From: Naegleria gruberi
Taxonomy: Eukaryota
DNA length: 64,000 nucleotides
Assembly: GCA_000004985.1 (NCBI GenBank)
Contig: GG738849.1
Direction: 5' to 3' (one strand)
The position numbers and the translations under genes are program-made. Positions 22,098 through 56,806 of this stretch are shown in pieces (position 1 is the first letter of the stretch; each line of letters begins with the position of its first letter). The notes below the pieces were generated by a model, which was not told the origin of the DNA, did no database searches, and saw only the letters and a program-made list of their open reading frames with translations.

Positions 22098-22118
22098 GTT
22101 TAGCGCCAACTCGATTCC
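22098..22118. promoter_or_regulatory. E2F-like site TTTAGCGCCAAC followed by TCGATTC, about 70-90 bp upstream of the PCNA ATG (gene on the minus strand)
   Basis: TTTAGCGCC differs by one base from the canonical TTTGGCGCC. Read on the gene strand it is GGAATCGAGTTGGCGCTAAA, the same ATCGA..GGCGC arrangement as the other sites. PCNA is a classic E2F target. Confidence 0.45.
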
Positions 22119-22146
22119 TTTTGACTGCTAAATTTTTAAATTTTTA

Positions 22147-22181
22147 ACGTAACGGACGTGTGAACAGGCGCGAGCGGGAGA
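22147..22181. promoter_or_regulatory. GC-rich island (ACGTAACGGACGTGTGAACAGGCGCGAGCGGGAGAG) in the PCNA/ADAT1 intergenic region
   Basis: A 35-bp stretch of about 60% GC in an otherwise AT-rich (more than 75%) spacer. It contains GCGGGAGA, a TCTCCCGC E2F-like half-site on the gene strand, and a GGCGCGAG. Confidence 0.35.
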
Positions 22182-22267
22182 GTTTTGTTTTGTAATGTGA
22201 CAGATTTCAGCAAGTACAGTTAAAAACCACCATTTTACAAACTTTATTGATAACGGAGAACAATAAA

Positions 22268-23608
22268 CTAAATATTTTTTTTTATTATCCACTTATCAAA
22301 TGGTGGTTGAGATTTCATAGTATTCAATTTGATAACGTAGGTGGATTCTCTCTTTTTAATTTCGTGGTATGTTTTCATGTTTGGTTCCTTGTTTTCCAAT
22401 AGTTGAGCCAGTTCTGCACTCAGTTCCTTTCTTTTAATACAATTAATGAAGGATTTAAAGAAGATGTGTTTAGATAGTTGAGTGGCTGCTTTTGGAGTAT
22501 TTTCATCCTTCTTGGTTGTTCCTTGTTTGTGACCTTTCATACCAATAACAACTTCCTCAACATGAGATTGATTTTCCTGTGCTAAATTCAAGTAAGATCC
22601 TATACTATATCCACTGCCTTTTATCTTTGTTTCTGAAGCTCTATCAGAGAAATGTGGAATATTCGATACACCTTCCTTAAATAAGTAAAACGAAGGAGTC
22701 TTGGTACTTAATTGGTCAACTCTATCAACAATTGATTGATTCAATCGTTGTTGTGTGAGTTCCAAATCCAATTTAGATTTTTCACTCAACAATATTAAGA
22801 ATTTGTCAACAAAAATTGGTTCAAAAAAGTTTGATAATAATGATCCTTGAATTCCTACAACATTCCACTTTGTAATCTTGTCACTGCAGGACATGCTCTG
22901 ATTTCTTGAGCCTCCTCCAGGTTTTAGACGAACTAGATTGATAGTTTGATCCTCTCCAAACTTTTCATGAGTGCATGAATCGTTATGAATAATTTTAGAA
23001 CCAGTTCTACCTTCCAGTATTACCTTCTTTCTTTGTTTTTGGTTCTGATGAGTTTAGTTCTGTTTCATCTAGTTTCCGTTTCATATCATTCGGTTCAACA
23101 TTTTCAGACTTGTTGAGCTGTTCTTCATTATTTGCCTGGCTGTTTTGTTCAATAGTTTCACTTCCACTACTGACAGTACTAGGAGAATTAACAATTGAAC
23201 AATCCCCACCTTGAAAATAATTCTTCTAATAAAATTATGAAAACAATCCAATAACATACATGGCAATTCTGTTAATATCATGTATAATTCAAAATTATTC
23301 TTCAATTTCCACCTCTCCACTTCTTCTACCCAATCAAAATATTCCGAACACTTTCCACTCTCCATTAAATTGTACATAAATTTCATAAAACTTCTCCTTG
23401 CCATAACTTCAGCATGACAATCATGAAGTAAATATCCATTATTGATATCCTTCTCAATCAAGTCATGTCCGATACATTTTGTACCTGTACCAATCGAGCA
23501 GACAATGAATTTCTTTTCTTGTGGGATTGAATTATTAGAGCAATCCACTAAAACGAGAGCTGCAAAAATTGTAAATTCACTTCCTTGTGGTTTTCCTTTT
23601 TTTGTCAC
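22268..23608 (-). CDS. adat1: tRNA-specific adenosine deaminase 1 (ADAT1/Tad1-like A-to-I editase). Exon 1 23608-23260, 50-nt intron, exon 2 23209-22268, with a reading-frame discontinuity near 23022-23044
   Basis: Deaminase zinc motifs HDCHAEVMARR and TELPC|GDCS, the latter split by a GTATGT..CAAG intron. The C-terminal block KVILEGRTGSKII...SMSCSDKITKWNVVGIQGSLL aligns with human ADAT1 KVIDVYRTGAKCV...[21 protein letters not shown]. The frame changes by +1 inside CCAAAAACAAAGAAAGAAGG, with no intron long enough to explain it. Confidence 0.75.
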
Positions 23609-24074
23609 TTTGTCTGAATAAAACTATAGGTAAATAATTAATTGATAATTGTGTTTGAAACTAACTTTAAAAACATGCTTCATAAGATTTCCGAAATGAT
23701 GAGTTGTACAACCGTCATTATTAAATGACATTTTTTATATTTATTATTCTTTAAGATATTATTCTCAACAACTTGTTGCAAACTATTCTTTAATATACAT
23801 CCATAATGAAAATCGATTCAATATTATCCATCACTGAAAACAATTGTATTGAGAGGAGAAACAGACAACAATAGAAGTTGTTTGCTTGAGTAAGGAGCAA
23901 TATTTAAAAATAATATCAAAAAAAAAATTGTACAGCACAATCTTCCTCCCTTTTGTATTCAAACTTTGAACAAGAGAGCATTTTGAAGATTTAAATCACT
24001 TCCGCATTAAAAATAGTATTAATATTACTAGTGTGTTATTGTTAAATAGATTACTTTGTTGCGAATACTTTAGA

Positions 24075-27000
24075 ATGGCTGACGATTTATTGGATGGAAT
24101 TGATGATCTTTTTGATGACGATGATATTTCAAACCTTTTATCCTCAACAGATAATACTACACCAAGTCAAAATATACAACAACCCACACAAACATCACAA
24201 CAAATTCCCCTACCAAGACCTTCATCCTCTGTTTTAAATCATCAACCAATCAATGTTCCTACAGTAATCACATCAAACATGAGGTCATCATCCACTACGA
24301 TCCCAATGCCTCAACAACAACAACCCTTTAATAATGCTTTTAATAATAGGAGTAGTCAACCATTTATTAATTTCCACGGAATGAATCCATCTCATAACGT
24401 TATCAATCCTAACCAAATGCATACCATGAACAAACCAACAATGACTCAACAGGAATATCTGAATTTGATGAGAAATCCAAATCAGAACTACATACCTTCA
24501 AATCCTTCTTCATCCAATAACAATAATAATTTTATGAGGATGAATTCACTCCCCCTCAACCTTCCAAACATTAATAGCAACAATAGTAATACTGCAACAC
24601 ACAATCCTTACCTCATGCAAGTGGCTAATCTCAACAAACAACAACAACTTGTCAAAAGTTTTACAACTCAACAACCACAAGGTAAATACTCCTCCTCAGC
24701 AACTGCACAAGTAGCTCCACCAAAACCATCTATTCCTCTCCATTCTGTCATTAACCAAATGGGAGGAAATCCAAAACTCCAATTTTCAACAATGGTCAAT
24801 CCACCACCTTCTTCTGCTTCTGGTAATGCAAAATTGGCTCATTCATTCTTAAATTCTATTCAACAACTCAATACACCAACAGGTGGCGTAATACCTCCTT
24901 CTTTTTTCACATCAGCCCCATCAGCCCCAATTCAGATCACTCTACCAACAAGCACAAAGGGATTTCTTGAAATTTCAGCTGGTACAAAGTTAGGAAAGAA
25001 ATGGCCTAAACTTTTGAGTGAAATTCCAAAAGTTGAGATCACTGTTGTAAATAATAGAATATGGCAATCTTTGACCTCATCTCCAAACTCTAATGCTGAA
25101 AATAATTCCATCAGATGTTATGTTCCAGATTTTGGTTCAGAGTTTGATGATTTTGATGATGATGATCTTGATGATGAAGAGGACGATATGCTATCAGACG
25201 ACGAAGAGTTCAATAATATGGATGAGGAATCCTTTGACTTGAACAAATTTAATTCTAAAACCAAAAAGAGTCAAGGTATGAAGAGAACAAGGTCTGGAGA
25301 AAGACCAAGACAAAAAAGTAATGCGTGTGTCTATTTATTTTCTCCGAATAGAGAAGCATTTGGATATATTAGTTCTCAAGAGTATAATAATTGCTTTGTT
25401 CCTCTTTCTAAACACAAAGTAATCATGATAACTGTATCTCCACTTCCAAGTACTGATAATTCAGGAAGATTTTTTGTTTCTCTCAAAGTTTATCTTGTCA
25501 AAAAAGCCCTTGTGACTGATAAGAATATTCTCGAGTCTAATAATGATTCTAATGATTCCAATAACAATATTTTGACAACAGCTGTTGATGGAATGGCTGA
25601 TGAGCAAATTAGAATCTATAATATTCGTAAAAACTTTTTGAAAAAGTTATTCGAAATTTTAGATAGAAATAATTGTTCAACAGGTGCTTCTTCCTCTTCA
25701 GATTTAACTGAATATGATTCTAGCAAAGTGAGAAAGACGAGTGAATCTGATATTAATGCTTCTAGAATTAAACAAGAGGAAGAGGATGATCTTGATGCCC
25801 TCGATGACACTGATTTGGATGAGTACATTATTCAAAAAGCACCAGCTTCCAGCTCTACAAGCAGTTCTAACTTGGATATCCAAGGTACTGATAAGAGTCT
25901 AGAGAAGCAACTCGAAGAGTTGTACGATGAGATTGAAAAAACAATTGTTGATGATGAAAATGCAGAGAATGATTTTTCTGATGAGGAGGAATCGAGTCAT
26001 CACGAAATTGAAATTCCTGACGATACACTCTTAACGGCTGATCTTAGAAGTTATCAAAAGACTGCTGTGAAATGGATGCTTAAACGTGAAAGAATTGGAG
26101 AAGATAAAGTCAAAACCACACCCAAGTTACACTCCCTTTATCAAGAAAGAAAATTCCCAGACGGAACAGCATTTTACTTTAATCCTCTTAATGGTATTAT
26201 AACATTGACATTTGTTCCTGCTCCACCTGAACCAAAGGGTGGTATTCTTGCTGAGTAAGTTTTTATTTTCGAATACTGGTTACTAATTTAATAATTTTTT
26301 AGTGAAATGGGTCTTGGTAAGACTGTAGAAGTAATTGGCTTGATTGCCTCCAATAGAATGAAAGGAAAAAAGAATACACAAAAAGTTGGTGACAAGTATC
26401 AATCTCCTGCTACTTTGGTTGTAACTCCATTGACTATTGTTGACCAGTGGAAGCAAGAAATTGAAAAGCACACAAACAATCAACTCAGTGTATACGTTTA
26501 TCAAGGTAGTAGGCGTATCAGAGATGCACCAACACTTCTCAAATATGATGTAATTATTACCACATACAACACACTTAGTTTCGAGTTTAGTCAAACTTAT
26601 ACACCAGCAAAAGAAAGGTCCAACGCAAAAAAGAAACAAACGAAGGATACATCAATGCAGCAACCTAGTCCAATATACAAGATGAAATTTTTCAGAGTTG
26701 TTCTCGATGAAGCTCACAATATTAAAAATAGAAAGTCTCTTCAGGCCAGGGCTACAGCAGCTGTTGATGCAGAAAGAAGATGGGCAGTCACCGGTACACC
26801 AATTCAAAATCATATTGATGACTTATTCTCACTATTCCACTTCTTGAAAGTTAATCCACATGGAGATTGGAGATGGTGGTCAAGGTTTATTGGCAAACCA
26901 TTCGAAAAGAAGGATAAGAAGGCTATTGACGCTCTTCAATCTGTTATCAAGAAGTTGGTCATTCGTAGAACAAAGAATAAGAAGATTAATGGTAAAAGAA

Positions 27001-28151
27001 TTGTCATGTTGCCACCAAAGAGAATCGAGACAGTCAATATACAATTTACTGAGGCAGAGAGTAATTTTTACAAATCTCTCTACGAGTACAGCAAGGGTAA
27101 ATTTAACGAGTTTGTTAGAAGTGGAACTGTTCTTAAAAATTATGCAAACATTTTGGAAATGCTTTTGCACTTGAGACAGGTTTGCAACCATCCAGCTCTC
27201 ATCATTACAAGTTTCCAGAAGAAATCTGAAAAATCAACCATGAATGGCTTCTTGGAAAGTTTTGAACAAAAGAATGCCTTTGAAGTATATGATTCTATTT
27301 TACCAATGTTACCTCAAGTTTTAAAACTTAATAAGGAAAAGAACAAACCAAAACAAAATTTGGAAGATGGCATGATTTCCTCTCAACTCAAAGCTATTAA
27401 TGTTACTAAATATATGAGGACTAATTGGAGATCGAGTAGTAAGATTGGAGCTCTTATAGAAAAATTGAGAGTTTTAGAGTTGGGAACTAAATCAGTTGTG
27501 TTCTCACAGTGGACATCCATGTTGGACTTGGTAGAAGTAGCTCTCGAAAAATCTAACATTAAATTCGTCAGACTTGATGGTAAAATGCAAAGAAAAGACA
27601 GAGATGATGCAGTACAAAAATTCAAATTTGATCCTCATATTCAAGTTTGTCTTATTTCCCTCAAGGTTGGTGGTACAGGGTTGAACTTGGTTTGGGCTAC
27701 ACATGTATTTTTATTAGATCCATGGTGGAATCCTGCTATTGAAGAGCAAGCCATTGATAGAGTTCACCGTATTGGTCAAGATAAGCCTGTTACTGTTTTC
27801 AGATTCGTTGTAAAGGATTCAGTTGAAGAACGTATTTTGAGTTTACAAAAGAGTAAGACTAAAATTGCCAATGAAGCGCTCAATCTTGGTGGAAGTGATG
27901 ACGAGGAAGAAGAAAATTATACAACCTATACAACATCATTCTTGGGTGGCTCATTTGGTGGTGGTGCTTTGAAGAGCAAGTCATATGACTCTGATGAAGA
28001 ATATGAGGATGACGATGAAGACGAATTCAATGAAGTAACTGTAGATGACTTGGAGGATGAAGAATCAGGATCTGGTGGTGCCATGTTTGGCCATACCAAG
28101 AAGGATGCTCAAAAAATACGTATCAAGGATTTGTCTACAATCTTTGTTTAA
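24075..28151 (+). CDS. SNF2-family DNA-dependent ATPase of the Rad5/Rad16/lodestar lineage, with no RING finger visible between the ATPase lobes. Exons 24075-26254 and 26303-28151
   Basis: A 48-nt GTAAGT..TAG intron splits the codon GA|T and reconstitutes canonical motif I, ILA-DEMGLGKT. Further motifs are DEAHNIKNRKS (motif II), VTGTPIQNHIDDLFSLFHFLKV and the helicase-C block LISLKVGGTGLNLVWATHVFLLDPWWNPAIEEQAIDRVHRIGQ. The N-terminal 700 aa are N/Q/S-rich and acidic. Confidence 0.8.
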
Positions 28152-28242
28152 TAAAACAAGAATTATTGTCTACAATCTCTTTAATTCTAATAAATGTGAA
28201 CTGAATGACACAAAAGAGGAAACATAAAATTATGATAAAAAA

Positions 28243-29091
28243 ATGAGTCAACAGCCTTTTTTCCAGAAGGTTACACAGGCAAGAAAGAGCAAGTCTTCTG
28301 TTCCGAATACATCTACAAGCTTTTTTTCCACTTTAAATGCAACACTCCAAAACGATACAAGCGATAGGGATTTTTTGAATTATTTTAGTCTGAGTGAAGA
28401 GGATCACCAGAGAAGTGATGAAGCCCTTGGTCTTCGTACACAACATGATCCAGAAGCTAGTACACCATTAGCACCAGAAGATGATGAGGATGAACCTGTG
28501 GGGGATGAGGAAAACTCTCCAATATCACAACCAACACCTAGGACAAGACCTAGGCATCCAAACTATGGAATGAAAACAGTGAGGCAAACTTCTGCCTCTT
28601 CATCAAATAATCCAAATGAAAAACGAAAAAGAAAGCAAAGGTGGCTTCAAGAAATTCGAAAATATCAAAAATCAACTAGGAATCTCATTCCAAGGGCATC
28701 TTTAATTAGATTAATCAAACAAGTTACTGCCGAATTATCTGAGAAAATTCCATACATTAGACAGCTTGCTGGTGAAGGTGCAATTCGATGGAGAAAGGAT
28801 GCTCTTGCTGCTCTCCATTCAGCAGCAGAAGATTTTTTACATGAATTTTTAACACTTTCTAACTATGCCACATTGCATGCCAAAAGAGTTACACTCATGG
28901 GTAGGGATTTAAAGCTTGTACAAAATATTAATAGGGAACACAATAGACATAGTAACAATGCTGGAGGAAAGAAACAAGCGTCATTTCAAGAAAGACCAGC
29001 AAGGAAGAGAAAGGATCCCAAGCGTAAGGACCTTTCAGAGTCAGTCCCAGAAAATAGTGATGATTCTATGAGAGATGAAGAGTCCTCATAA
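28243..29091 (+). CDS. Centromeric histone H3 variant (CenH3/CENP-A-like): long divergent N-terminal tail, H3 histone fold with extended loop 1, plus a roughly 45-aa basic/acidic C-terminal extension
   Basis: Histone-fold region RWLQEIRKYQKSTRNLIPRASLIRLIKQV...LHAKRVTLMGRDLKLVQNI compared with H3 [28 protein letters not shown]...IHAKRVTIMPKDIQLARRI. Loop 1 (SEKIPYIRQLAGEGAIRWRKDA) is longer than in canonical H3, and the N-terminus is non-H3. Both are CenH3 hallmarks. Confidence 0.75.
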   Translation: MSQQPFFQKVTQARKSKSSVPNTSTSFFSTLNATLQNDTSDRDFLNYFSLSEEDHQRSDEALGLRTQHDPEASTPLAPEDDEDEPVGDEENSPISQPTPRTRPRHPNYGMKTVRQTSASSSNNPNEKRKRKQRWLQEIRKYQKSTRNLIPRASLIRLIKQVTAELSEKIPYIRQLAGEGAIRWRKDALAALHSAAEDFLHEFLTLSNYATLHAKRVTLMGRDLKLVQNINREHNRHSNNAGGKKQASFQERPARKRKDPKRKDLSESVPENSDDSMRDEESS

Positions 29092-29160
29092 TTTCAAATC
29101 ACTTTGTAAATAGCCTTTAACTGTAACAATATCAAAAATTGTAAAATATGTTCATGTATG

Positions 29161-29189
29161 TGATCGAATTTTAATACCCGCCATTTTTT
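29161..29189. promoter_or_regulatory. Composite TGTATGTGATCGAATTTTAATACCCGCCATTTTTT upstream of the FIGL1-like AAA ATPase
   Basis: Shares the 14-mer TGTATGTGATCGAA with the 4574-4587 element, and an E2F-like CCCGCCATTTT 10 bp downstream of it. Confidence 0.45.
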
Positions 29190-29200
29190 CTTCACTTCCA

Positions 29201-31147
29201 GTGTTTGTTCGAAATGCTAAATTAAAAAAAATGTCTGAACACTGCTCACTTTCGGAACAACTTGCGACCATACTAGTGCTACGAGAGGAAAATTTACTCT
29301 CTGAACCAAAACGAACGGACACTGTGGAAGTAACAATACCCGATTATTTTTCAAAACATTATAATAGAGTTTTAAGAGATCCTCTGGGGGAGTATCGTTC
29401 TCTGATTGAAGTACAATCGGTTGAAGAGGCTAATAGTTTTATAACATTTTCTAAACAAATCTTTAATCAAGTCTCTGTGGAGAATAATATAGTAGAACCA
29501 TCAAATTATAAATTAATATCAAAATCAGAAATCACAAGACAGTCACCACTTCTCCAAGCGTTAATGGTGAAAAGACAACACGAATATATTGCACCAAAAA
29601 TTGTAAATGTACCTTCATCTGTTGTTCGATCAACAACTCCGAGCTTTGAAAATGTAAATAGTAATAATTCAGTTGTACAGCAACAACAAATAGGAAGGAA
29701 GCCTATTCGATCATCTCACAACAACAAGTCTTCTGATGTTATGGTCATTGATGATGACGAGGAAAAACAACCAAAAAGTTCCTTCGTGACAGCTAAACAA
29801 TTAGTGAAGAAAAACAAGGGTAGTAATAGTAAGGATATTATGTCTGATGATGAAAATGAAGAGGAAACAATCAAGAAAAAGACATTGAGCGACATTAAAA
29901 ATCCAACCTCTAACTATCATCCAGTCACTTCATTGACAAGAAATTGTGGAGAAAATACAGGTGGAACGAAAAGGAAAAAGTTTGTGCCACCTTTGAAAGA
30001 TAATGGCAATAATAATAGTAATAATAATAATAATTCGAGTTCAAATTCAGGAGAAAAGCCTGCAAAAAAGAAAAAGAAAGGTGCTGATGATGAAAAGGCT
30101 CCTGATTTATCTAAATTATTTGAGGATGGTGAAATACCAGAGGAGTTGTCACATCTAGATCCTAAATTGATTGAGACAATTTCTAATGAAATTTTGGAAT
30201 CTAAAGTATCTGTAACTTGGGATGATATTGCTGGTTTGGCCTATGCAAAGAAATCAGTGCAGGAGGCTGTTATTTGGCCCCTAATGAGACCAGATTTATT
30301 TACAGGATTAAGAAAGCCTCCAAAGGGTAAGTTATAATTTCTGTTTAAAATATTCAAATTTATTTAAAATATTAATGAAATAGGACTTTTATTATTTGGA
30401 CCACCTGGTACTGGTAAGACACTGATTGGTAAGGCTATTGCTCATGAGAGTGGATCAACCTTCTTTTCCATTTCTGCATCCAGTTTAACCAGTAAATGGG
30501 TTGGTGAAGGTGAAAAATTGGTGAAAACACTATTTTCTCTGGCTAGATATTTCCAACCTTCTGTTGTTTTTATTGATGAAATTGACAGTTTACTTTCTCA
30601 AAGAAGTGATGGAGATGCTGACAATGGATCTAGAAGACTCAAAACAGAATTTTTAGTTCAATTGGATGGTGCTTCTACAAATGATGACCAAGATAGAATT
30701 TTGATTGTGGGTGCAACCAATAGACCAGAAGAAATTGACGAAGCTGTCAGAAGAAGAATGGGCAAGAGATTGTACATTCCTCTTCCATCTAAGGAGGGTA
30801 GAAAGGAAATGTTTTTGAGACTTCTCGCCAAGAATCCTAATACACTCTCTGATGAAGAAATGGAAAAGTTAGTAGAACTCACTGATGGTTATTCGGGTTC
30901 TGATATCAAAAATCTTTGTGCTGAAGCTTCTATGTTCTCAGTTAGAGATCTTGGATCATTTATTAAGCATGCGTCAGCTGATCAATTGAGGCCAATTGAG
31001 TTTAAGGATTGTAGATCAGCCCTTAAATCAATTCGTCCTTCTGTAGCACAAAGTGATCTAGATAGATATATTGAATGGAATAGAACATTTGGTTCTTTTG
31101 ATTTTGATGAGAAGGAACAAGAAGAGTCATCAGCAAAAAGTGATTAA
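29201..31147 (+). CDS. AAA ATPase of the meiotic clade (fidgetin-like 1 type). Exons 29201-30326 and 30384-31147
   Basis: A 57-nt GTAAGT..ATAG intron splits the codon G|GA and restores ...[27 protein letters not shown] (Walker A). Downstream motifs are [11 protein letters not shown] (Walker B), [21 protein letters not shown] (second region of homology with arginine finger) and the C-terminal WNRTFGSF. A non-ATPase N-terminal region precedes the ATPase; the start may be ATG 29201 or 29231. Confidence 0.8.
30008..30034 (+). repeat. (AAT)n imperfect microsatellite encoding an Asn/Ser run in the FIGL1-like gene
   Basis: aataataatagtaataataataataat. Confidence 0.85.
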
Positions 31148-39027: not shown

Positions 39028-41439
39028 TTATTTCCTACATGATCGAAGTATTTTCTTAAAAACTCTAAACCAGCTCTTCTTTCCATAAACTAACCTTAGT
39101 CCAACATAGCTCAAAATCTTACAAACAATCCAAAAAGAAGTGAGAATTGCCAAATAGACCCACAACATGTAATGTGGATCTGAATATCCATAATTCTTTT
39201 CCAGGAAATAGGTTCCGTTTGTGTAGTAATTTGAAGGGAGGGTAGTATTTAAAGGTGTTTCTAGTTGAATATCAAACTCATTGATAGCCATAGCTTTGAA
39301 ACCATAAAACAGATAATTGAGATATTTAAACCAAGCTAACCATTCAGTATTATGAATACCATAAACCCCACTTGTTAATATAAACATAATATTAATTACT
39401 GGTGTAATTAAATTCAATAAAGGTGGTATAGGAACAAGTGAAACAAGCATTTGAGCAAAACTCACACAAGTCCAATGATAAGTAGCAAAAATAAGGCCGA
39501 AAATTAATACTCGATCATATTCCAATGTCAATCCAGTCATAAAATAAACGATTCCACCAAAAAGCAGCGAAAATATCGACGTTTCTATTAAATCCTCCAT
39601 TGTCTTGGAAATAAAAAACGCACTAGTTCTATAGATTGAACTATTTCTCTCCTGGGTCAACATTGGAATTTGATTAATTAAATTTTTCAAACTTGCAGAA
39701 AACGTTAAAGAGATATTTAAATTGAGAAAGGTAAAAATTTTACCCTTCAATGGCATATTGTTAGGATCTATTTGAAAGTATAATAATCCAATAAATACAG
39801 ATACTGCTATTTTTTCCACGAAAGGTATTAAAAATTCCACTTTCCAATTTCTCAATCTACTCAAATAATTTCTCATTATAAGTGTAAAAACAGAGTAAAA
39901 GAAGTTGGCATAATAAGGCTCGTAGTGAAAAGTTGTTGGATCATTTTCAAGATATCGATTTTCCTCCTTATTTTTCATGGGAATGAAGAAATCGTCCAAT
40001 TGTTTGATATACTCTGTGGCAAATAACTCACTCTGATCTAACGGCTCTTGTGCATCTTCGACTAGTATTGTTTCAAATGTCTCTGTCTGAAGGAGAGAAA
40101 TAACTTGGAACAAAAACTCTACTTCATTATGATTTGATTCATCAGCACTGACACCGATTTTTGAAAAATAGGTAATTAACTTGTTCGGTGGACCAAAGTA
40201 TAATTGATTTCCCTTATTAAGTATTGATATATAATCAAATAACTCTAGTTCTTTTAAAGATGGCTTGTGAGATGTGACCACCACTCCCACACCCATAAGA
40301 GCAATTGATTTCATAATTCTAATAAAATGGGCAGCCTCTCCAATTTCCATGCCATCTGTTGGATATTCAAGAAGTAATACTCTGTGTTTGAGAACATTCT
40401 GCACGGCAATGTGTAATCTCTTCTTCTCAGCTGTTCCAAGGGCTGAATAAAACACATTCTCCTTGTTTTTCAACTCGTACTTTTTGAGGAGGTATTCCAA
40501 ACGTTCCTCTCTACAATTTGAGGCTGCACTCTTAATGTTTGTCAATTTCAATTTGACTGTGAAATTCAAAATTTCCCTCACAGTCAAAACTGGGTGGGAT
40601 GTTGCAAAATGCTTTGGGACATGAGCAACCAGAGACTTGTATTGAGTTGATGTTAGTCTAATACTCGGTTTGTCATGACACGAACAAACAACCTTTCCAT
40701 TAATTAATATTTGGCCTCCAAAATCCTTAAAATCACCTCTCTGGGATAGTATATTCAATAGAGTTGACTTGCCACTATTAGAAGAACCAATGAGAGCTGT
40801 TATCTTTCCTGGTGTCGCAAATCCACACACATTCTTAAGATGCAATGATTCATTTGTAGCTCCTAAAGGATATTGCAATCCCTTCCACTCCAAGAAACAT
40901 CTCTCATCACCCTCAACAAGTGGGTCATCATGAAATTCAACCTTTGCCAGGGAGCTTGATTTCTTAAGAAAACCTACACCTGGATGTTTGATTGGCTTAA
41001 TTGTTCCTTTCAGAGTCAATTTCCTCTGTGGAACAACATTTAATTCAAACTCTACCGCACTATTTCTCCTACTACTTTTAAAAGACAATTCATTTCTCAT
41101 GGCTGAGGCAACAGCTTGCAATGTTGATGGAGAGGCAAAATGGTTATCCTCCAGTTTATCAACAACATCGGACGACACTTGAGAAATATCGACTACTACT
41201 TGTCCTATATCATCATTGGGTGATGAAGATGTTACAACTATTGAGGGTGGAAGTGAAGATGCTTGAGATTCTTGAGTGGATACCACTGCTTCCGACATTT
41301 TTTCGCACTTGATTAGTGTGGGTTCACAGAATGGTGTGTTTCTTTCCCGCTCTACAGTTGTTACAAGAACTGTACTTGGAATGCGTCTACTGACCTCTGC
41401 CACGTCTGGAGATTGGGTTCTTCTTAAAATGTTTAGCAA
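39028..41439 (-). CDS. ABCG (White-type) half-transporter with an N-terminal NBD and a six-helix TMD. The NBD catalytic motifs are degenerate
   Basis: Walker A GSSNSGKSTLLNIL is intact and the H-loop TSHKPS is present. The signature reads SALGTAEKKRLHIA instead of LSGGERKRLSIA. Walker B and catalytic base read LLLEYPTDG instead of LLLDEPTSG. The Q-loop glutamine is absent (AHVPKH). The C-terminal hydrophobic segments and the ABC2-type architecture are typical of ABCG. Confidence 0.8.
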   Translation of the reverse strand: MLNILRRTQSPDVAEVSRRIPSTVLVTTVERERNTPFCEPTLIKCEKMSEAVVSTQESQASSLPPSIVVTSSSPNDDIGQVVVDISQVSSDVVDKLEDNHFASPSTLQAVASAMRNELSFKSSRRNSAVEFELNVVPQRKLTLKGTIKPIKHPGVGFLKKSSSLAKVEFHDDPLVEGDERCFLEWKGLQYPLGATNESLHLKNVCGFATPGKITALIGSSNSGKSTLLNILSQRGDFKDFGGQILINGKVVCSCHDKPSIRLTSTQYKSLVAHVPKHFATSHPVLTVREILNFTVKLKLTNIKSAASNCREERLEYLLKKYELKNKENVFYSALGTAEKKRLHIAVQNVLKHRVLLLEYPTDGMEIGEAAHFIRIMKSIALMGVGVVVTSHKPSLKELELFDYISILNKGNQLYFGPPNKLITYFSKIGVSADESNHNEVEFLFQVISLLQTETFETILVEDAQEPLDQSELFATEYIKQLDDFFIPMKNKEENRYLENDPTTFHYEPYYANFFYSVFTLIMRNYLSRLRNWKVEFLIPFVEKIAVSVFIGLLYFQIDPNNMPLKGKIFTFLNLNISLTFSASLKNLINQIPMLTQERNSSIYRTSAFFISKTMEDLIETSIFSLLFGGIVYFMTGLTLEYDRVLIFGLIFATYHWTCVSFAQMLVSLVPIPPLLNLITPVINIMFILTSGVYGIHNTEWLAWFKYLNYLFYGFKAMAINEFDIQLETPLNTTLPSNYYTNGTYFLEKNYGYSDPHYMLWVYLAILTSFWIVCKILSYVGLRLVYGKKSWFRVFKKILRSCRK

Positions 41440-41888
41440 GATCTGGAATTAATGAGGATACAGAATTAAACCAAGCTCTTTCTTAATTGTTTTTAAAGCA
41501 TAGAAAACAAACATTTAGCACTCTTCTTCAAGTTAGTTTTCTTTTACATTGAAACCGTATTCAATGTTTAATTGTTGATTTTCTGCATGAAGGTTCTTCT
41601 TTCGATTTCTCTTGAAGCCTCAGTAAATCGAAGACTGAAACTTAGAGCTTGTCTCCAAGCATTTAATACAAAGGATTAAGGAATTGTTGAATGTGACTAT
41701 AAAAGAAAGGTTTGGCCGAAAGTGAACCAATAAGAACTCAAACAAAATATAATTGTCAAAACTAATTTTCAATAAGAAACTCCATCATGGAACTCATACA
41801 ATAATAGGCTCAAAAATACAATATATTTTCCCTCAAATAATTTACGGTTGTTTTCTAATTAGTAAGAAGAATAAAAAAATGGATGAAG

Positions 41889-47995: not shown

Positions 47996-48024
47996 TTCAG
48001 ACCAGATTCGTATTGTTGATGATT

Positions 48025-48045
48025 ATCGAACTTGTAGCGCATAAA
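48025..48045. promoter_or_regulatory. ATCGAACTTGTAGCGCATAAA, 30-50 bp upstream of the TRK transporter ATG (gene on the minus strand)
   Basis: Same ATCGA-N-(T)GGCGC-like arrangement as the PCNA site (ATCGAGTTGGCGCTAAA). Confidence 0.3.
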
Positions 48046-49156: not shown

Positions 49157-49168
49157 GGTTCCCGCTAC
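49157..49168. promoter_or_regulatory. GGTTCCCGCTAC (TTCCCGC E2F half-site) about 20 bp upstream of the IFT20 ATG
   Basis: Isolated GC-containing motif in an AT-rich 114-bp spacer. TCGAATTTTTTTAAT 60 bp upstream resembles TCGAATTTTAAT in the FIGL1 element. Confidence 0.25.
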
Positions 49169-49185
49169 AAAGTTCTACAAAAAAA

Positions 49186-49628
49186 ATGGAAGACTTGAAA
49201 TTAACGTTCGATGAGGAATATAACTTGAGAGTGTTTGACCCAGCCAAGTTTAGTACTTCCGAGATGATGAAGACCAAATCGGAGGAGTTTGCTTCCAGTA
49301 AGTGTTGTATGGAAGGATTTAATTTAATAATTCATGTGAAGAGATTAAGGATTTTCAGAAACTTGTTGCTGAAGTAATGCAAATATTGAACAATCAGGGG
49401 AAAACAATTGAAGATGAAAAATTAAAAGCCATTGGTATGAGAAATCTTGTTAAAGGGGAGGAGGATCGAAGAAAGAATTTATTGAGAGAATACAACCAAT
49501 TAATAACAGACAAGCACACAGAATTGGAGAGGTATATTGATGAATTGGAGTCGCTGAAAAAAGTTGACCAAGAACAAAAGAAGCTTATTGAAAGATTGAG
49601 CAACAATGAGCCAACAGATTTAGATTAA
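49186..49628 (+). CDS. ift20: Intraflagellar transport protein 20 (IFT-B complex), about 127 aa. Exons 49186-49297 and 49359-49628
   Basis: Collinear with human IFT20. LTFDEEYNLRVFDP compared with LHFDELNKLRVLDP. EDEKLKAIGMRNLVK compared with ENEKMKAIGARNLLK. ELERYIDELESLKKVDQEQ compared with QLERYRVEYEALCKVEAEQ. A 61-nt GTAAGT..TTCAG intron (phase 1) joins ...EEFAS to KLVAEVMQIL. Confidence 0.85.
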
Positions 49629-49713
49629 AAATTGTAAAGAATATATTGAAATTGTAAATTATGATTAATTATTAAATTATTTTCGAATATGATTTATTGT
49701 TTCTGATAAATAT

Positions 49714-50574: not shown

Positions 50575-50710
50575 GAGCGTTTTTCCTCTTGTAGTAGCAA
50601 TTCTATCATTTTTGAACATATTCACTAGTGGTTTGAGGGAGATAGGAAAACGCCTTATTTTTTTTTAAAGTTTGTTTGACAAACGGTTTAAAGTACATCT
50701 GTAGTCAGAA

Positions 50711-50729
50711 ATGGATTTGGCGCCATTTT
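50711..50729. promoter_or_regulatory. Near-palindromic E2F-type site ATGGATTTGGCGCCATTTT in the divergent promoter between the 303-aa membrane protein gene and the Arp gene
   Basis: TTTGGCGCCA is the canonical palindromic E2F/DP core. The flanking ATGGATTTGGCGCC parallels ATCGAGTTGGCGCT at PCNA. Confidence 0.4.
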
Positions 50730-50908
50730 CAATATCCCTTGATGGAATCTACTGGTCTTATTAATGTCTGTTCATTTAGGTATTTGAGAACATGATATAT
50801 TTTAATAATTGCTCAAAGACAATTGACTAGTATCATGATGAGAATACAAAACCTCTGAAATGAATATTTGCATACATCTAAGGCAAACTTGAATCACTAT
50901 AAAAAAAA

Positions 50909-52831
50909 ATGTCCTTCTTCTTTCGGAGAGGAAATCGTTCCACTAGTCAAAACAATAATCAGTCATCGGTGGCATCCATAAATTCAACATCGGATGATGA
51001 AGAGGAGGTGGCTACACCATCAATAACAGATCAGAATAAGGTATTAATTTCATCACCACGTTTCCGAAGTAGTAGCCTCTCACAACAGCAAAACAATCAA
51101 AGAACAGACGAAAGAATTGAGATTGCAGTGGAGGGTGATGATAGTGGCACCCCTTCAACTCTATCGAAAGTGGACATTAATAGAGTAGAACAATCGAGTG
51201 GATTATTGGAAATTCCTTCATCTGCCTACAAGAGAAAAATCTCATTCTCTGATGAATCAAGTCCAGAAACAACACCAACAAAAACAGCAACATCAGATAA
51301 TTTGTATAGTTCAGCACTTACTACTAAGGGTAATTATAAAGTGACACCAAATAGTAATAGAAGAGTTTTGAATAAGATTCCTTCCTCTCTCAGATTGGAT
51401 CCAAAAACATTTACAAGGAAGAACTCAACTCCTCAATTATTCACCTCCCCAAGAAATCCTTTATCATTATCTCTCTCTAAATTGAATGAAACAAAAATAT
51501 CATCCGAAAATATAAGCAATGTTGTGCTGAGTAGTAGGAGCTCCTCGCAGCTTGTAGTAATTATTGAAATAGGGAGAAAATATTTCAAGTGTGGAATATC
51601 TGGAGACTATTGCCCAAGAGTAGTTCTTCCTGTACCTTATGAACTTTCAGAAATGTTGTGTAAATGTAAAAATCATAATTTTAATATAGACCACATGAAA
51701 CAAGCCTTTTCCAGTTTTGAAAAAGATATTGGATCTTGTAATATAGAAACTGATGTAATTTTTGATGAGTATACACGAATTGGATTCGGGAACAGTATTG
51801 AAGATGATGCCTATTATGAAGAAAAACTGTCTCACCTTTTGGGAAAACTATTAAAGAGGATATTCATCGATGAACTCAAACTTCATTTGGATAGCATAGA
51901 TCATGTGGTAATTTTGGAGAATGTTTATTCACTACATGAAAATCTAGTGAGGAGAACAGTGGAAGACATGTGCAATAGAAAACGATTTTCCAAACTGAAA
52001 GGAATTAAATTTATCAATGCTCAAAGTTGTGCCCTAATACCTAGCTCTTGCTCGGTAAAATTTCAAACAGCAAATGATAGCAACAAATTGCTTTCTCCAC
52101 CCATCCTAAGTTTGACTTCGAGGAAAGGAAACGAAGAGATGGATGTAAATGGCTTGGTTATTGATTGTGGATTTTCAGAATGTAAAATTGTACCAGTCTT
52201 GTTTGGATGTATTGTGCAGGCTGGTGTGGTAGTTGTTGACACTGGATCAAAACATATTCTTCGACGATTGAAGGACAATTTGATGAAAATGAATCCAAAA
52301 GAATCACTGACACCTCAGCACTGTGACCATGTGGATCTCAATAAGTTATTCTATGAGCATGATGAAGGAGAAATGCTCAAGTATAGCAAACTGATGGATT
52401 GTGAAACAATGCTATTGGAAGATATTTTCACAAGAGTTTGTTATTGTGATGGTGAAGGAGATAATCCACTTGTTCCATTTTCAGATATTATTCAGTATTG
52501 GAATGGCAGGTATTGTATCTCAATTACTGACGCCATCAGAAGAGAGGCTTGTGACATTTTATTTGACCCTCTCATGGAAGGTATTGTGGAAAGTTTGAAA
52601 CGAATTGAAATTGATCCACGATCTAAAATTTTGAAAAACATTCTGGTATGTGGAGGTTTGGCTGAAATTGCTGGTTTCAAAAAGAAGCTCCTTAGAAGTT
52701 TGAGGGATATACTGAGTGAGCGAGATATGACAAGGAGTTGGTTGAAAAACATTGGAATCAATATGGATGATACAGTCTCTCATTCCATTCTCAATTGGTA
52801 TGGTGCCTCAATTATTTCCTCACAATTATAA
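50909..52831 (+). CDS. Divergent actin-related protein (Arp10/11- or Arp8-like) with a Ser-rich N-terminal extension of about 200 aa
   Basis: Actin-fold signatures LVIDCGFSECKIVPVLFG (actin VLDSGDGVTHTVPIYEG) and KNILVCGGLAEIAGFKKKL (actin [20 protein letters not shown]). The rest is highly divergent. Confidence 0.7.
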   Translation: MSFFFRRGNRSTSQNNNQSSVASINSTSDDEEEVATPSITDQNKVLISSPRFRSSSLSQQQNNQRTDERIEIAVEGDDSGTPSTLSKVDINRVEQSSGLLEIPSSAYKRKISFSDESSPETTPTKTATSDNLYSSALTTKGNYKVTPNSNRRVLNKIPSSLRLDPKTFTRKNSTPQLFTSPRNPLSLSLSKLNETKISSENISNVVLSSRSSSQLVVIIEIGRKYFKCGISGDYCPRVVLPVPYELSEMLCKCKNHNFNIDHMKQAFSSFEKDIGSCNIETDVIFDEYTRIGFGNSIEDDAYYEEKLSHLLGKLLKRIFIDELKLHLDSIDHVVILENVYSLHENLVRRTVEDMCNRKRFSKLKGIKFINAQSCALIPSSCSVKFQTANDSNKLLSPPILSLTSRKGNEEMDVNGLVIDCGFSECKIVPVLFGCIVQAGVVVVDTGSKHILRRLKDNLMKMNPKESLTPQHCDHVDLNKLFYEHDEGEMLKYSKLMDCETMLLEDIFTRVCYCDGEGDNPLVPFSDIIQYWNGRYCISITDAIRREACDILFDPLMEGIVESLKRIEIDPRSKILKNILVCGGLAEIAGFKKKLLRSLRDILSERDMTRSWLKNIGINMDDTVSHSILNWYGASIISSQL

Positions 52832-52842
52832 ACATGACATAT

Positions 52843-54210
52843 TTATTTGTATTTAAAAACAATGTCATCAAAGAGTGGATTTTCAAAGCTGGCCTTGATA
52901 AGATCTCCCTTTTCTAATTCTCTTGACTTTCCAGTCATTGTACCACTAGAAATGATTTGACCTGCCAAAACATCACGACCAAATTCACCTGTAATTCTGT
53001 TAATACATTGCAGACAAGTATCTAATGGACCTTTAGTTTCATTTGGATCATATTGACCATTGCAAACGAAACTTCCCTTGGCCTTTGTATCAGATTCACC
53101 ATTCAAGAAGAGTTCAACATTTTCAAATGACAACTTGGCAACTTGTGTCTTATCGAAAGTTGATGGCTTTTCTGGAATGATTAAATTAATATGACCACCC
53201 AAATCAGCAATTCTTGTCAAGACACCTCCATTATTTTCAACATTATCAACTCTTGTACCAATAATTTCTACAACACCTTTAACATGATCCAATGCATCAA
53301 TTAATTCTTCCTTTGTATATGGTTCAGAACGAGCCTTTAAATCCTTAGCCAAAACAAAACCAAATTCAATTTCTACCATTGGTCCAAAGTTTGTCACATC
53401 TTCAACTTGAACAGATTCTGGATTTTTCAAAACTTGATGTTCAAAAATAGGTCCCAAGAATGGTTGCTTGATGTTCAATCTCACCAAAGCCTTTGGTTGA
53501 GTTGCTCCAATTTTCCATCCAACTAATTTCCAACCCTTTTCCTTTTCCAAGAGATCAATCAATCTCAATTGAGCATATTGAGCTTCAGTTTCAGATTTTG
53601 GAAGAATGTTTTGAGGGAATGTTAAAATAGTTCTATTTGCTAATTTTCTCTTTTTGATAGATTTGAAAGCGGCCATTGGTGTAACTTCATCAGGATCAAT
53701 TTTAGAGAGTGCTTCCTTGTTAAATTTGAGAACAGGAACATCTTCATCTTCATTTTGTGGCTTTCTTTCTTTAATTTCATTTTCTAATAACTTTTGAATG
53801 ATTTTATCATCTCTCAATGTAATTTCTTCAATTTGTTCCAAAGCTGATTTTTGTTTAGGATTAGTTTCAAGGAAATCTTGATAATTTTTATATTGAAATT
53901 TCATCAATAATCTTGCAATATATTCAATTCTTTTTTGTTCATCACTATTCCATTTATCTTGTTTAAACCACAATTGGAGTGGCTTTTCAAGTGGTTTATC
54001 AAGAATTTTGTTAATGTACTTTTTCTTTGGACGAGCTTGAGCAACCATTGGTTTTGCTTCTTCAAAGGAAGCAGCAGAAGCATTATCCTGTTGATTGAGA
54101 GTAATTTCCGATCTAGAGAAATTTCTAACAACAACATTGCTGAATAAATACTGTTGTTGTGGCGATGAGGAATTGGATAAAAGCCTTCTGATTGGGAGAG
54201 TTGTTTTCAT
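52843..54210 (-). CDS. 2-keto-4-pentenoate hydratase / 2-oxohept-3-enedioate hydratase family (MhpD/HpcG-like, FAH superfamily) domain fused to an N-terminal extension of about 190 aa with a presequence-like start
   Basis: The C-terminal 260 aa align with E. coli MhpD. [26 protein letters not shown] compared with [39 protein letters not shown] compared with [32 protein letters not shown] compared with [30 protein letters not shown] compared with GDIILTGALGP. The N-terminus [34 protein letters not shown] resembles a mitochondrial targeting peptide. Confidence 0.7.
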   Translation of the reverse strand: [455 protein letters not shown]

Positions 54211-54480
54211 TTTGATTGAATTATTTTTTTTATTAAAATTTTTTAAATTTTGTTGTGATCCACATTTTCGAAAATTTTGGATAGCTGAGTTGTTTTGTAA
54301 TATTTATGAAAATTTAATTTTCCTGATACAGGATAATTCACTCTAATAATTGTTGGTCTAAGTGGCAACAATATATTTTAAAGGCTCTTGAGAGTGTATA
54401 AATAATTCAATTCTATTTTGACATGTTAAATGTTATTTTTAAAGAGCTAGAAGTTAAATAAAAGTAAAAATTGAAAGAAA

Positions 54481-55566
54481 ATGAATGAAGAAGGATTTTC
54501 CTCATTGTTGCAGCTAAGACATCAAACAGATTGCATTGGTGTTATTTTACAATTTTTTGGATTCAAGGAAAGAATTTGCAAGCTTTCTCTCGTGTGCAAA
54601 GATTGGATGAAACTCATCAAACAGCTGCCGATCAGAATCCATTTACATCAATACTCGAATTGGGTTGGTTGGGATGAATCAAATTCAAAAACTTATAGGA
54701 AAATGATCAAGAGTGAATTCTTGAATAATTTGATCGGTTTGGAAATGTCTGGATGTGTTTCCGAGGATGTGAAAAATGTTGTGAAGAAGTATTCAAAACT
54801 TGAGTATCTTTCTGTGCATAATTGTCATCCAAGAGGTGCATTTGCAGTTGCGAAATATCTCCCCAATTTGACTGCGTTGGATTTTAGTGAATCAAGAATT
54901 TTAAATATTGGTTCAATTTCTATTGTAAAGAGTGAAAATATGAGAAATTTAACAAGTTTAAATTTGGACTATTGTAAAGTTTCTGAAGTTTTTGCAAGAG
55001 AGCTTGTTAGTAGTCCTTATATGAACAATCTGAATAGTCTTTCTCTTAAATGTAATAATTTGAAAGTGGAAGGTGTCAAAATTCTTAGTCAAAGTCCAAT
55101 ACTTTCCAATCTAACATTCTTAAAATTAGAAAGAAATAGAATTGGAAAGGAAGGATTATCCTACCTATGTAATAGTATCCATATGAACAAATTAACCTCT
55201 CTCAATCTTAAAGGAAATTCATTAGGTGATGAAGGAATGGAAATTCTAACCTCTCACAATTCAATCCTCAAAAAACTAACTCTTTTGAATTTGAGTGGTA
55301 ATTCAATTACAGATGAAGGGATTAGAACGTTGGTAAATTCGCCAGATATGAGCAATTTGAGTTCTCTCTATTTGGGTAATAATGATGGTTATCGTGGATG
55401 GTTTAAGGTTTACAGTCTTTACAATAATTATACAAAACTAGCTGTCGAGATGATAGTTGAAAGTCCTTTTATGAAACAACTCAAAAATTTACAATTAATT
55501 CCTATGGCAGAGAAAGATAAGGTATTACTCAAATCTATTCCAAACCTAAAAATTGTTTCTAGATGA
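54481..55566 (+). CDS. F-box / leucine-rich-repeat protein (RNI-type LRRs)
   Basis: N-terminal F-box-like CIGVILQFFGFKERICKLSLVCKDWMKLI, followed by about 9 LRRs of the LxxLxLxxNxIgdeG type (LTSLNLKGNSLGDEGMEIL, LTLLNLSGNSITDEGIRTL). Confidence 0.65.
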   Translation: MNEEGFSSLLQLRHQTDCIGVILQFFGFKERICKLSLVCKDWMKLIKQLPIRIHLHQYSNWVGWDESNSKTYRKMIKSEFLNNLIGLEMSGCVSEDVKNVVKKYSKLEYLSVHNCHPRGAFAVAKYLPNLTALDFSESRILNIGSISIVKSENMRNLTSLNLDYCKVSEVFARELVSSPYMNNLNSLSLKCNNLKVEGVKILSQSPILSNLTFLKLERNRIGKEGLSYLCNSIHMNKLTSLNLKGNSLGDEGMEILTSHNSILKKLTLLNLSGNSITDEGIRTLVNSPDMSNLSSLYLGNNDGYRGWFKVYSLYNNYTKLAVEMIVESPFMKQLKNLQLIPMAEKDKVLLKSIPNLKIVSR

Positions 55567-55774
55567 TTATAAAATTCCAATTATTTACTGAATCAGAATT
55601 ATTCATCACAATATTTTCTTTGTGAATTTTAATCCATTCAACTTGCTGTAATAAAGCACACTATGAAGACTTGTACAACATGAATCCTCAGTCTACTAGT
55701 ACATCTCCATAAATATCAAGGCATACCTTTCAAAACTATTTTGATTTTACACTTTCAGAGATATAATTGAAAAC

Positions 55775-56779
55775 TTATGAGTAAACCTTCTTTACAATAA
55801 TTCTATCAGATGGATGAGATTTGTTTCCCATTTCCCAAGTATAGGAAACGGCACATGCAAGATATTCACCACTAGTACTAAAAGTCAATACAGCAATGCT
55901 TGTACTATAGGGTGCTGAACGAGAAACCCTCCTCTTCTTATCCTTATCCCAGAACATTAATACACCATCACAACCACCTGTTACAAATATATTTGGATGT
56001 CTTGGATTGAAATCAATAGTATTGACTGGATAGAGTGTTTCTACAGCTTGTTGTCCTGTTTGACTTCTGTGACATTTGAAAGCATAATTCGAATTTGAAT
56101 TGTTAAAGTATTCTACTGCTACTCTTCCTTCAATAGATCCGATAGCATAAGAATTATTGTCACCAAAACACTTGACAACTCTGGTTTGATACTTCAATCC
56201 ACTTTGCTTTCTAATATGTAAGGAGAGAGGTTGATTGGAATCTTTTTGAATATGCACAATGAATATGAGCAAGTCTTGGGATGCTACCACCAATTTAGAT
56301 CCATCAGGAGTGACATCCATGCTGTAGACCTTTTTGGTCAGGTCCAAGGTCTGTATGCATGTATTCTGTTGAGTATCCCAGAGCTTGATTGTTCCATCCC
56401 AACTTCCAGTTATGATTTTCTCTGGTGTTCCAGGAATTGTTGAAATACACTTGATAGCACTCTTGTGAAAATCAGGAAATGTTCCAATCACACTTTGTTC
56501 TCCACTCTTCATATTGTATTTGACCAATTTTCCGTCCAAACCAGCACTAAATGTACACTCCTCACCATTAGAAAAACATCCACACAATACACTTGTCTGA
56601 TGTTCATACTTGGTAACTAAAGAGTTGGATTTGACATTGTAAATTCTAACGGATTTATCCCAACTTGTAACCAGTAGCAAATCATGATTCAAGGTTGAAA
56701 AATTTAGGCTAGAAATGCCATCTGTTGGTGGATCGTGCAAGTCAAAGCCTTCCTCTGTAATGAGTTGTTGTGAAGACAT
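55775..56779 (-). CDS. bub3: Mitotic checkpoint protein BUB3 (WD40), 334 aa, intronless
   Basis: Collinear with human BUB3. [30 protein letters not shown] compared with [63 protein letters not shown] compared with [40 protein letters not shown] and YPVNTIDF are conserved. Confidence 0.9.
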   Translation of the reverse strand: [334 protein letters not shown]

Positions 56780-56793
56780 TTTTTTGTTAAATT

Positions 56794-56806
56794 TTGTGGC
56801 GGGAAT
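56794..56806. promoter_or_regulatory. E2F-like TTGTGGCGGGAAT 15-30 bp upstream of the BUB3 ATG (gene on the minus strand)
   Basis: GGCGGGAA core identical to the CEP120-like promoter site; located just beyond the BUB3 start codon at 56779. Confidence 0.4.

Follow-up and report, generated by a model that had tools for sequence, protein, structure and literature searches.

Predicted E2F-type sites close upstream of PCNA, C2CD3 and other genes of Naegleria gruberi

In a 64,000-nt stretch of Naegleria gruberi DNA (GenBank contig GG738849.1; hereafter the window), near-identical GC-rich words stand a short distance upstream of several genes, PCNA among them, and raise the question of what kind of element they represent. 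An earlier note, made from the sequence alone, described them as one composite promoter element, in which a core resembling the animal and plant E2F/DP consensus is preceded by a conserved ATCGA(A) extension, and proposed that this element links replication, checkpoint, centriole and perhaps ciliary genes into a single regulon. Our analysis points to a narrower answer: the GC-rich cores are probably E2F-type sites, predicted from their sequence and context, which take the forms TTGGCGC(C) and TTCCCGC(C) of the consensus TTTSSCGC and lie in very short proximal promoters. The E2F interpretation stands on positional enrichment, conservation in orthologues and the presence of an E2F/DP/DEL/Rb set, and fails for the string upstream of the TRK gene; the site upstream of FIGL1 is not conserved.

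The window corresponds to scaffold_5:416001-480000 of the JGI assembly, so that an offset of 416000 relates its positions to the coordinates of published expression tables; the CenpA entry there (scaffold_5:444243-445091) coincides with a histone open reading frame (ORF) at 28243-29091, and the PCNA entry spans scaffold_5:437167-438060. The genome is compact here, with ~29 genes per 64 kb; introns are few, and the 5′ intergenic spacers measure 80-770 bp, with a GC content of 22-37%. For comparison, we used ~190 kb from N. lovaniensis, N. fowleri, a metagenomic Naegleria sp., Willaertia magna and Acrasis kona, and the pooled k-mer scan covered all 6- to 8-mers in the 100 bp before start codons in ~232 kb of heterolobosean DNA. 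One start codon had to be corrected before SSCGC was counted in promoters: the ORF of an ABCG-type transporter, as called mechanically, opens at TTG 41439, with the first in-frame ATG at 41298, and because it begins at a non-ATG codon, ORF-based coding masks conceal the TTTCCCGC in its promoter (41298-41448).

The rarity of the GC core and its bias towards promoters, both asserted by the earlier note, were borne out. SSCGC occurs at ~17 sites in 64 kb, nine of which fall in the ~8.5% of the window that is 5′ intergenic, and TTSSCGC has eight matches against 3.1 expected from shuffled sequence, with six of the eight located 15-100 bp 5′ of a start codon. Among 5-mers that are not AT-rich, the most promoter-enriched in the window are CCCGC (5 of 6 copies), CCGCC (4/4), CGGGA (7/13) and CGCCA (8/19); the control all-G/C 5-mers CCCCC, GGCCC and GCCCC show no promoter enrichment there. 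All four window copies of GCGGGAA lie within 50 bp upstream of an ATG. Outside the window, which provides an independent replication, four of five copies of GCGGGAA/TTCCCGC are upstream of a start codon (P ~2e-5), and in the pooled 232 kb eight of nine lie 20-85 bp before one (P 1e-10). The other best words that are not A-rich within 100 bp of start codons in this unbiased scan were GGCGCCA (7/9), GCGCCAA (8/18), TTTCCCGC (5/5) and TTGGCGCC. The enriched words are the two canonical E2F variants, TTTGGCGC and TTTCCCGC.

Could these motifs be a product of chance or composition, that is, GC-rich words free of constraint that persist only where there is no coding sequence? The window total of TTSSCGC is just 2.6 times the shuffle mean, a value reached by one of 100 shuffles, and the sample is small. 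However, the promoters are more AT-rich than the coding sequence and yet contain nearly all copies, the control G/C words are unbiased, the result was replicated in independent loci, and the sites lie in register in orthologous promoters. A chance origin is already largely refuted by these observations, and we regard it as negligible.

The individual sites differ in how closely they follow the consensus. The strict 8-mer TTTSSCGC is found in the window only at 41343 and 50716, and the 7-mer TTSSCGC at 4594, 22103, 41344, 49159, 50717 and 56799, while the FIGL1 site ATACCCGCC and the distal PCNA site match the core only. All six strings quoted in the earlier note, together with its TTCCCGC half-site, are present exactly, although the C2CD3 string (4582-4601) and the first copy of a shared 14-mer (4576-4589) lie outside the range 22098-56806 to which it had assigned them. 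PCNA itself (21232-22029, minus strand) has a quoted string 70-88 bp from its start codon, which contains a proximal E2F-like site at 22099-22110 on the minus strand (TTTAGCGCCAAC on the plus strand, GTTGGCGCTAAA in gene sense), ~40-50 bp before the 5′ end annotated in the JGI model of PCNA; the strongest element at PCNA, a distal double site, CTCCCGCTCGCGCC in gene sense (22167-22180, minus strand, ~140 bp from the ATG), was absent from the earlier list. In front of C2CD3, whose quoted string lies 25-44 bp from the start codon, the E2F-like site AAAATGGCGGGAAT (TTCCCGCC on the minus strand) occupies 4588-4601, minus strand, 25 bp 5′ of the start codon at 4626. The FIGL1 upstream site ATACCCGCCATTTT (reverse complement AAAATGGCGGGTAT) is at 29174-29187 on the plus strand, 44 bp 5′ of the start codon at 29231, in a string extending 44-76 bp from it, and the site of BUB3, TTGTGGCGGGAAT (TTCCCGCC in gene sense), lies 15-27 bp 5′ of the start codon at 56779 (56794-56806, minus strand). 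IFT20 is preceded by TTCCCGC at 49159-49165, plus strand, 21-27 bp 5′ of its start codon at 49186, with CTACAAAAAAA following at 49175-49185.

The two perfect matches stand before other kinds of genes. The TTTCCCGC of the ABCG-type transporter (41343-41350, plus strand), 46 bp 5′ of ATG 41298, had been overlooked, and the near-palindromic TTTGGCGCCATTTT (50716-50729, plus strand) sits in the divergent promoter of a membrane-protein gene and an Arp10/11-like gene, the quoted string being 86-104 bp from the former and 180-198 bp from the latter. Upstream of the TrkH gene, the string ATCGAACTTGTAGCGCATAAA (48025-48045, 30-50 bp from the start codon) was judged not to be part of the element: we rejected its TAGCGCAT as an E2F-like site because it has no SSCGC core, ATCGAA being its sole resemblance.

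Conservation in orthologous promoters is most extensive at PCNA, where E2F-like sites are present in all five species compared (N. gruberi, N. lovaniensis, Naegleria sp., Willaertia and Acrasis), none of them more than ~230 bp from the ATG and the majority no farther than 145 bp; the PCNA promoter of a near-identical strain (L001) differs too little from the window for an informative comparison. N. gruberi has TTGGCGCTAAA and CCCGCTCGCGCC, and N. lovaniensis an identical CCCGCTCGCGCC together with CCGCCAA; this double site is ~140 bp upstream of the ATG in N. gruberi and ~220 bp upstream in N. lovaniensis (L003, ~6296-6310). Naegleria sp. carries CAGCGCCAAAA and CTCCCGCG, Willaertia ACGCGCCAAA and TAGCGCCAAA, and Acrasis GGCGCCAAAA and TGTGCGCC. 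In Naegleria sp., Willaertia (two copies) and Acrasis, GCGCCAA(A) is no more than ~145 bp from the PCNA start, and N. lovaniensis has CCGCCAA instead. At C2CD3, all four species compared have E2F-like sites: the three Naegleria (N. gruberi, N. lovaniensis and Naegleria sp.) share a GGCGG/GCGCGG core that lies in register, 9-10 nt ahead of an invariant AACTACAAAAAAAT, and in Willaertia TTTCCCGC stands 50 bp from the ATG. The predicted sites at PCNA and C2CD3 are the most securely functional, and it is plausible that those at BUB3, IFT20, the ABC transporter and the Arp11/membrane-protein pair are functional as well. For BUB3, no relatives turned up in the metagenome scan, and the gene is not encoded in any of the related loci used here; for IFT20, a second metagenome scan yielded three contigs of 42-45% GC, which belong to another organism and could not serve for comparison.

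The proteins expected to read such sites are encoded in the genome: between them, two published sets place E2F, DP, DEL and Rb in N. gruberi. Sequences of NgruE2F, NgruDEL and NgruRB are given in the source data of Medina et al. 2016, and Table S3 of Herman et al. 2021 counts 2 E2F_TDP proteins, 1 E2F_TDP+DP protein, 2 CXC proteins and 78 Zn-cluster factors. The DNA-binding domain of NgruE2F matches the human E2F4 chain of the E2F4-DP2-DNA structure 1CF7 with E = 7e-25, its recognition helix is identical to that of human E2F4, as is a stretch of 24 residues, and its coiled-coil/marked-box region, responsible for dimerisation and pocket binding, matches E2F4/5. Given the unchanged recognition helix, the predicted specificity of NgruE2F is canonical. 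We infer that E2F/DP, rather than another protein, binds the candidate sites: the single canonical E2F together with DP, and possibly a two-domain DEL/E2F7-8-like protein, would bind 10-150 bp before the start codon, an Rb homologue would restrain E2F/DP, and the downstream gene would be switched on or off.

Several points weigh against this interpretation. The sample of ~105 genes is small, and PCNA and C2CD3 orthologues are over-represented in it, which inflates the pooled statistics. In Acrasis, copies of the same 7-mers lie mostly in coding sequence. The genes behind both strict TTTSSCGC sites, those of the ABC transporter and the membrane-protein/Arp11 pair, have no evident part in the cell cycle, while two plausible cell-cycle genes of the window, encoding CenH3 and a SNF2-family helicase, have no site; the CenH3 gene, a neighbour of PCNA, has no E2F-like site in any of three species. 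The FIGL1 site was found in none of four orthologues (N. fowleri, N. lovaniensis, Willaertia and Acrasis) and, on this comparison, is specific to N. gruberi. Finally, some of the 78 Zn-cluster factors could recognise those sites that contain CGG.

This last point opens the way to a different protein: the sites might be real proximal promoter elements bound by a non-E2F factor, such as a Zn2Cys6 cluster or GC-box protein, with the resemblance to E2F sites being coincidental. Zn_clus factors outnumber E2F-family proteins by 78 to 3 in N. gruberi, many of the sites contain CGG, the strict TTTSSCGC occurs at just 2 of ~9 window sites, and an ABC transporter, a membrane protein and a GyrI-like gene are among the targets. 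However, the PCNA sites, which are conserved as far as Acrasis, have the form GCGCCAAA and contain no CGG, animals and plants both have PCNA among their classic E2F targets, both canonical variants are enriched, and the E2F recognition helix is unchanged. We therefore consider a non-E2F factor unlikely and retain E2F/DP as the predicted reader of these sites.

The proposed 5′ extension fared less well than the core. Described as conserved, ATCGA(A) stands beside three of seven cores in the window, and the 15 E2F-like sites in intergenic DNA of N. lovaniensis, N. fowleri, Willaertia and Acrasis all lack it. Within the window, the association gives a modest signal: ATCGA lies within 15 bp of these three cores (Monte Carlo P ~0.02, post hoc), and the composite ATCGA-N2-12-SSCGS occurs three times against 0.27 expected. 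A lineage-specific bipartite element, in which E2F would act with a partner on ATCGA(A) and the core and thereby unite replication, checkpoint, centriole and cilium genes in one regulon, would account for these figures. Against it, ATCGA by itself is not promoter-enriched, nor is ATCGA(A) enriched near start codons in the relatives, and in the ~190 kb of related DNA no promoter contains the composite, save for the same PCNA site in the near-identical strain. Moreover, the C2CD3 orthologue promoters keep the core and drop ATCGA, an ATCGA that stands 18 nt from CCGCCAA in the PCNA promoter of N. lovaniensis does not align with the N. gruberi copy, and the promoters of BUB3, IFT20, the ABC transporter and the Arp gene have no ATCGA(A).

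The same bipartite reading draws on the 14-mer TGTATGTGATCGAA, which the earlier note had taken as a sign of a lineage-specific element. Copy 1 (4576-4589, plus strand) abuts the C2CD3 E2F-like site and is repeated exactly at 29155-29168, plus strand, in the FIGL1 promoter. By itself, such sharing carries no weight, as 106 non-trivial 14-mers recur in the window; moreover, sub-words of TGTATGTGATCGAA show no convincing recurrence in the relatives, and the 14-mer is not conserved in the C2CD3 orthologues. Both copies do abut near-identical cores (AAAATGGCGGG[A/T]AT), a coincidence for which we estimate a chance of ~2-3 in 1000, and the opposite orientations of the two cores argue for two separate sites and against a duplication. 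Taken together, the evidence makes a bipartite element improbable, and ATCGA(A), as the comparison with relatives indicates, is not part of the predicted E2F-type element.

ATCGAA might also be viewed as a degenerate cell cycle genes homology region (CHR, TTYGAA), which together with the core would form a tandem resembling the cell cycle-dependent element (CDE)/CHR pair and be read by a DREAM-type complex of E2F/DP/Rb and a LIN54-like CXC protein. N. gruberi has two CXC-domain proteins, ATCGAA is one base off the palindromic CHR TTCGAA, the GC core adjoins this TTYGAA-like hexamer at three N. gruberi promoters, and near start codons there is a mild excess of TTYGAA (45/707, P 0.009). In N. lovaniensis, the sequence GCGGGAGGTTCGAGTGGCGCC, found in the divergent promoter of a GST gene, resembles the CDE/CHR of human CDC25C. 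However, the order and spacing are wrong, the known CDE lying 4 nt upstream of the CHR and ATCGAA here lying 2-10 nt upstream of the core; in addition, the first T of the CHR is replaced, and ATCGAA is not conserved in the orthologues. With a geometry that does not fit, we rejected this reading as highly improbable.

Expression data bear on the idea of a single regulon. From the data of Kennard et al., the analysis covers two genes of the window, PCNA and CenH3. PCNA (jgi_35238) belongs to mitosis cluster 1 and rises by 2-3 log2 units after synchrony release, and is flat or falling during flagellate differentiation. The neighbouring CenH3 gene, which carries no site, is nearly flat; both observations favour the E2F interpretation. 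Cilium genes, according to a 2025 review, are induced in Naegleria differentiation. A single co-expressed regulon, as the earlier note envisaged it, is unproven and unlikely in its simple form, because differentiation induces cilium genes and does not induce PCNA; this also counts against the bipartite element in its one-regulon version.

The two variants may serve separate programmes. The TTCCCGC form precedes members of four independent cilium/centriole families, namely C2CD3, IFT20, a TTL-family gene in N. lovaniensis and Tctex1 in Willaertia, and is found in 3 of ~67 other gene families (Fisher P 3e-5, a post hoc test on a small sample); at PCNA it is the TTGGCGC form that occurs. At C2CD3, IFT20 and Tctex1, TTCCCGC is followed after 5-12 nt by a sense-oriented CTACAAAAAA, itself adjoining the start codon. 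We tentatively suggest, as a possibility that we rate well below even, that TTCCCGC(C) marks a cilium/centriole programme, in which an E2F4/5-like E2F or DEL would drive de novo assembly of basal bodies and flagella, and that TTGGCGC(C) would serve S-phase genes. The regulators of cilium and centriole genes in Naegleria are unknown, RFX, FOXJ1 and XAP5 all being absent (2025 review). Considering this gap together with the roles of E2F4/5 in vertebrates and of E2F in Stentor, the hypothesis deserves a genome-wide test. If it is true, a candidate would be named for the regulator of cilium genes in Naegleria, and the link between E2F and centriole biogenesis would be ancient, being common to vertebrate multiciliated cells and Stentor.

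Sense-oriented CTACAAAAAA(A) occurs 9-90 bp before start codons in just ~9 of the ~105 genes, which comprise C2CD3 (in three Naegleria), IFT20, Tctex1, a CCT/TCP1 subunit, a TALE homeobox gene and two unknowns; it lies at 4606-4616, 49175-49185 and 62374 (minus strand) in the window and, in the related loci, at L012 9988 and 767, L014 311, L013 23626, L004 4306 and L003 11002. Its 11-mer version CTACAAAAAAA has exactly two window copies, one directly before the C2CD3-like start region (4606-4616, plus strand) and the other at IFT20. CTACAAAAAA may be an initiator or leader element of a subset of genes. In the C2CD3 leader (window 4616-4660; L014 316-326), an ATG follows the A-run immediately, out of frame and ahead of the real start codon, and opens a short frame of 14 codons in N. 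gruberi and 3 codons in Naegleria sp., which may be a small upstream ORF.

How do the Naegleria sites compare with known systems? With the G1/S sites of E2F/DP in animals and plants, they share the consensus in both its variants (TTTGGCGC and TTTCCCGC), the position near the transcription start in either orientation, the frequent doubling, and PCNA as a target with periodic expression; the trans-acting set of E2F, DP, an E2F7/8-like DEL and Rb is likewise shared, including the recognition helix. They differ in that the host is a heterolobosean (Discoba), the sites are 10-150 bp from the ATG in tiny promoters, the T-run is often imperfect (ATGGCGGGAAT), and the list of genes adds cilium/centriole and transporter genes. 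The Drosophila DNA replication-related element TATCGATA, which is bound by DREF beside the E2F sites of PCNA, may offer a likeness to the ATCGA motif at Naegleria PCNA, but ATCGA(A/G) is not the palindrome TATCGATA and is neither enriched nor conserved. The resemblance to the CDE/CHR of DREAM G2/M promoters, already discussed, breaks down at the order, the spacing, the first base of the hexamer and the absence of conservation in relatives.

For the cilium/centriole hypothesis, the closest parallel is the E2F4/5-MCIDAS/GEMC1 system, which drives centriole amplification in vertebrate multiciliated cells (2025 review). In both cases centrioles are built outside the cell cycle, the candidate Naegleria sites are at C2CD3 (centriole elongation), IFT20, TTL and Tctex1, and the one E2F of N. 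gruberi resembles E2F4/5 most closely; Naegleria, however, makes two basal bodies de novo rather than hundreds. During regeneration of the oral apparatus in Stentor, predicted E2F targets are expressed alongside centriole genes, and RNA interference against E2F impairs regeneration (Sood et al. 2022, PMC9371601). Stentor is unicellular like Naegleria, but it is a ciliate, and its predicted targets do not form one functional class; functional data exist for Stentor, whereas the Naegleria sites are known from sequence, and conservation in orthologous promoters was seen only in the present study.

Control by E2F/DP/Rb is thought to go back to the last eukaryotic common ancestor, and, to our knowledge, animals, plants and a few other groups supply nearly all the evidence for it that is based on promoter sites. 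The conservation of E2F-type sites at PCNA in five heterolobosean species extends such evidence to Discoba; a literature search, within the library that could be searched, found no report of E2F sites in the promoters of Naegleria or other heteroloboseans. Sites of the same kind before C2CD3, IFT20, a TTL-family gene and Tctex1 offer a concrete hypothesis that is cheap to pursue, and we judge it weightier than the extension to Discoba.

The argument depends in part on gene identities, most of which agree with the names first given. The PCNA ORF is 100% identical to N. gruberi PCNA at NCBI, the names of FIGL1 and IFT20 hold (the best named matches of FIGL1 outside Naegleria are fidgetin-like 1), and so does that of BUB3, which scores 228 bits with human BUB3 against 152 with RAE1 in BLAST, figures that are approximate; a PDB search ranked human RAE1 over yeast BUB3 for this gene. 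The gene that the earlier note called CEP120-like is instead C2CD3-like (4626-8959): its orthologues in N. lovaniensis and Willaertia, which align with it from position 4707 on, have a C2_C2CD3_N domain. The TRK gene does encode a TrkH-family transporter, the claim of an E2F-like site upstream of it being the part that failed, and the Arp gene is weakly similar to Arp10/11 (dynactin). PDB searches with unannotated neighbouring genes returned no useful match.

Some further observations concern the surroundings of these genes. The histone-fold gene at 28243-29091 is one of two N. gruberi 'CenpA' genes (AKG0020) in the data of Kennard et al. considered here, where it is nearly flat and not induced in flagellate differentiation, and where the second gene, AKG0018 on scaffold_9, is induced by >6 log2 units. 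The order CenH3-FIGL1 is common to N. gruberi, N. fowleri and N. lovaniensis. Upstream of FIGL1, the CCAAT-containing sequence ACTTCCACCAATC is common to N. fowleri and N. lovaniensis (L009 9960-9975; L010 9955-9975), and N. gruberi has CACTTCCAGTG in its place (window 29195-29205). Near IFT20-like matches on metagenome contigs that are not Naegleria (42-45% GC), GC-rich direct repeats of the type …CTATGCGGCGACTAGTGAGCGGCGCGGTAGCACAGAC… are spaced ~160-170 bp apart downstream of the match (L015 1060-1430; L016 430-770; L017 1130-1160). The divergent promoter between the GST gene and an unknown gene of 700-732 residues, whose N. lovaniensis copy has a weak zf-C2HC match, keeps GGCGCCAA in N. 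fowleri and N. lovaniensis (L010 15434-15456; L009 15522-15531), the N. lovaniensis version reading GCGGGAGGTTCGAGTGGCGCC.

Two other classes of words are promoter-enriched. Window promoters hold a disproportionate share of AACCGT (6 of 11 copies) and AACCG (8 of 25), for example at 22061-22066 upstream of PCNA, and an element of the AACCG type, AAACCGTTAAA, is present also in the N. lovaniensis PCNA promoter; these words may be Myb-type sites, N. gruberi having ~38 Myb-domain proteins. Across the window and all loci, TATATA(A) is over-represented in the 100 bp before start codons (13 of 64 copies), which fits TATA boxes in a minority of the sampled promoters.

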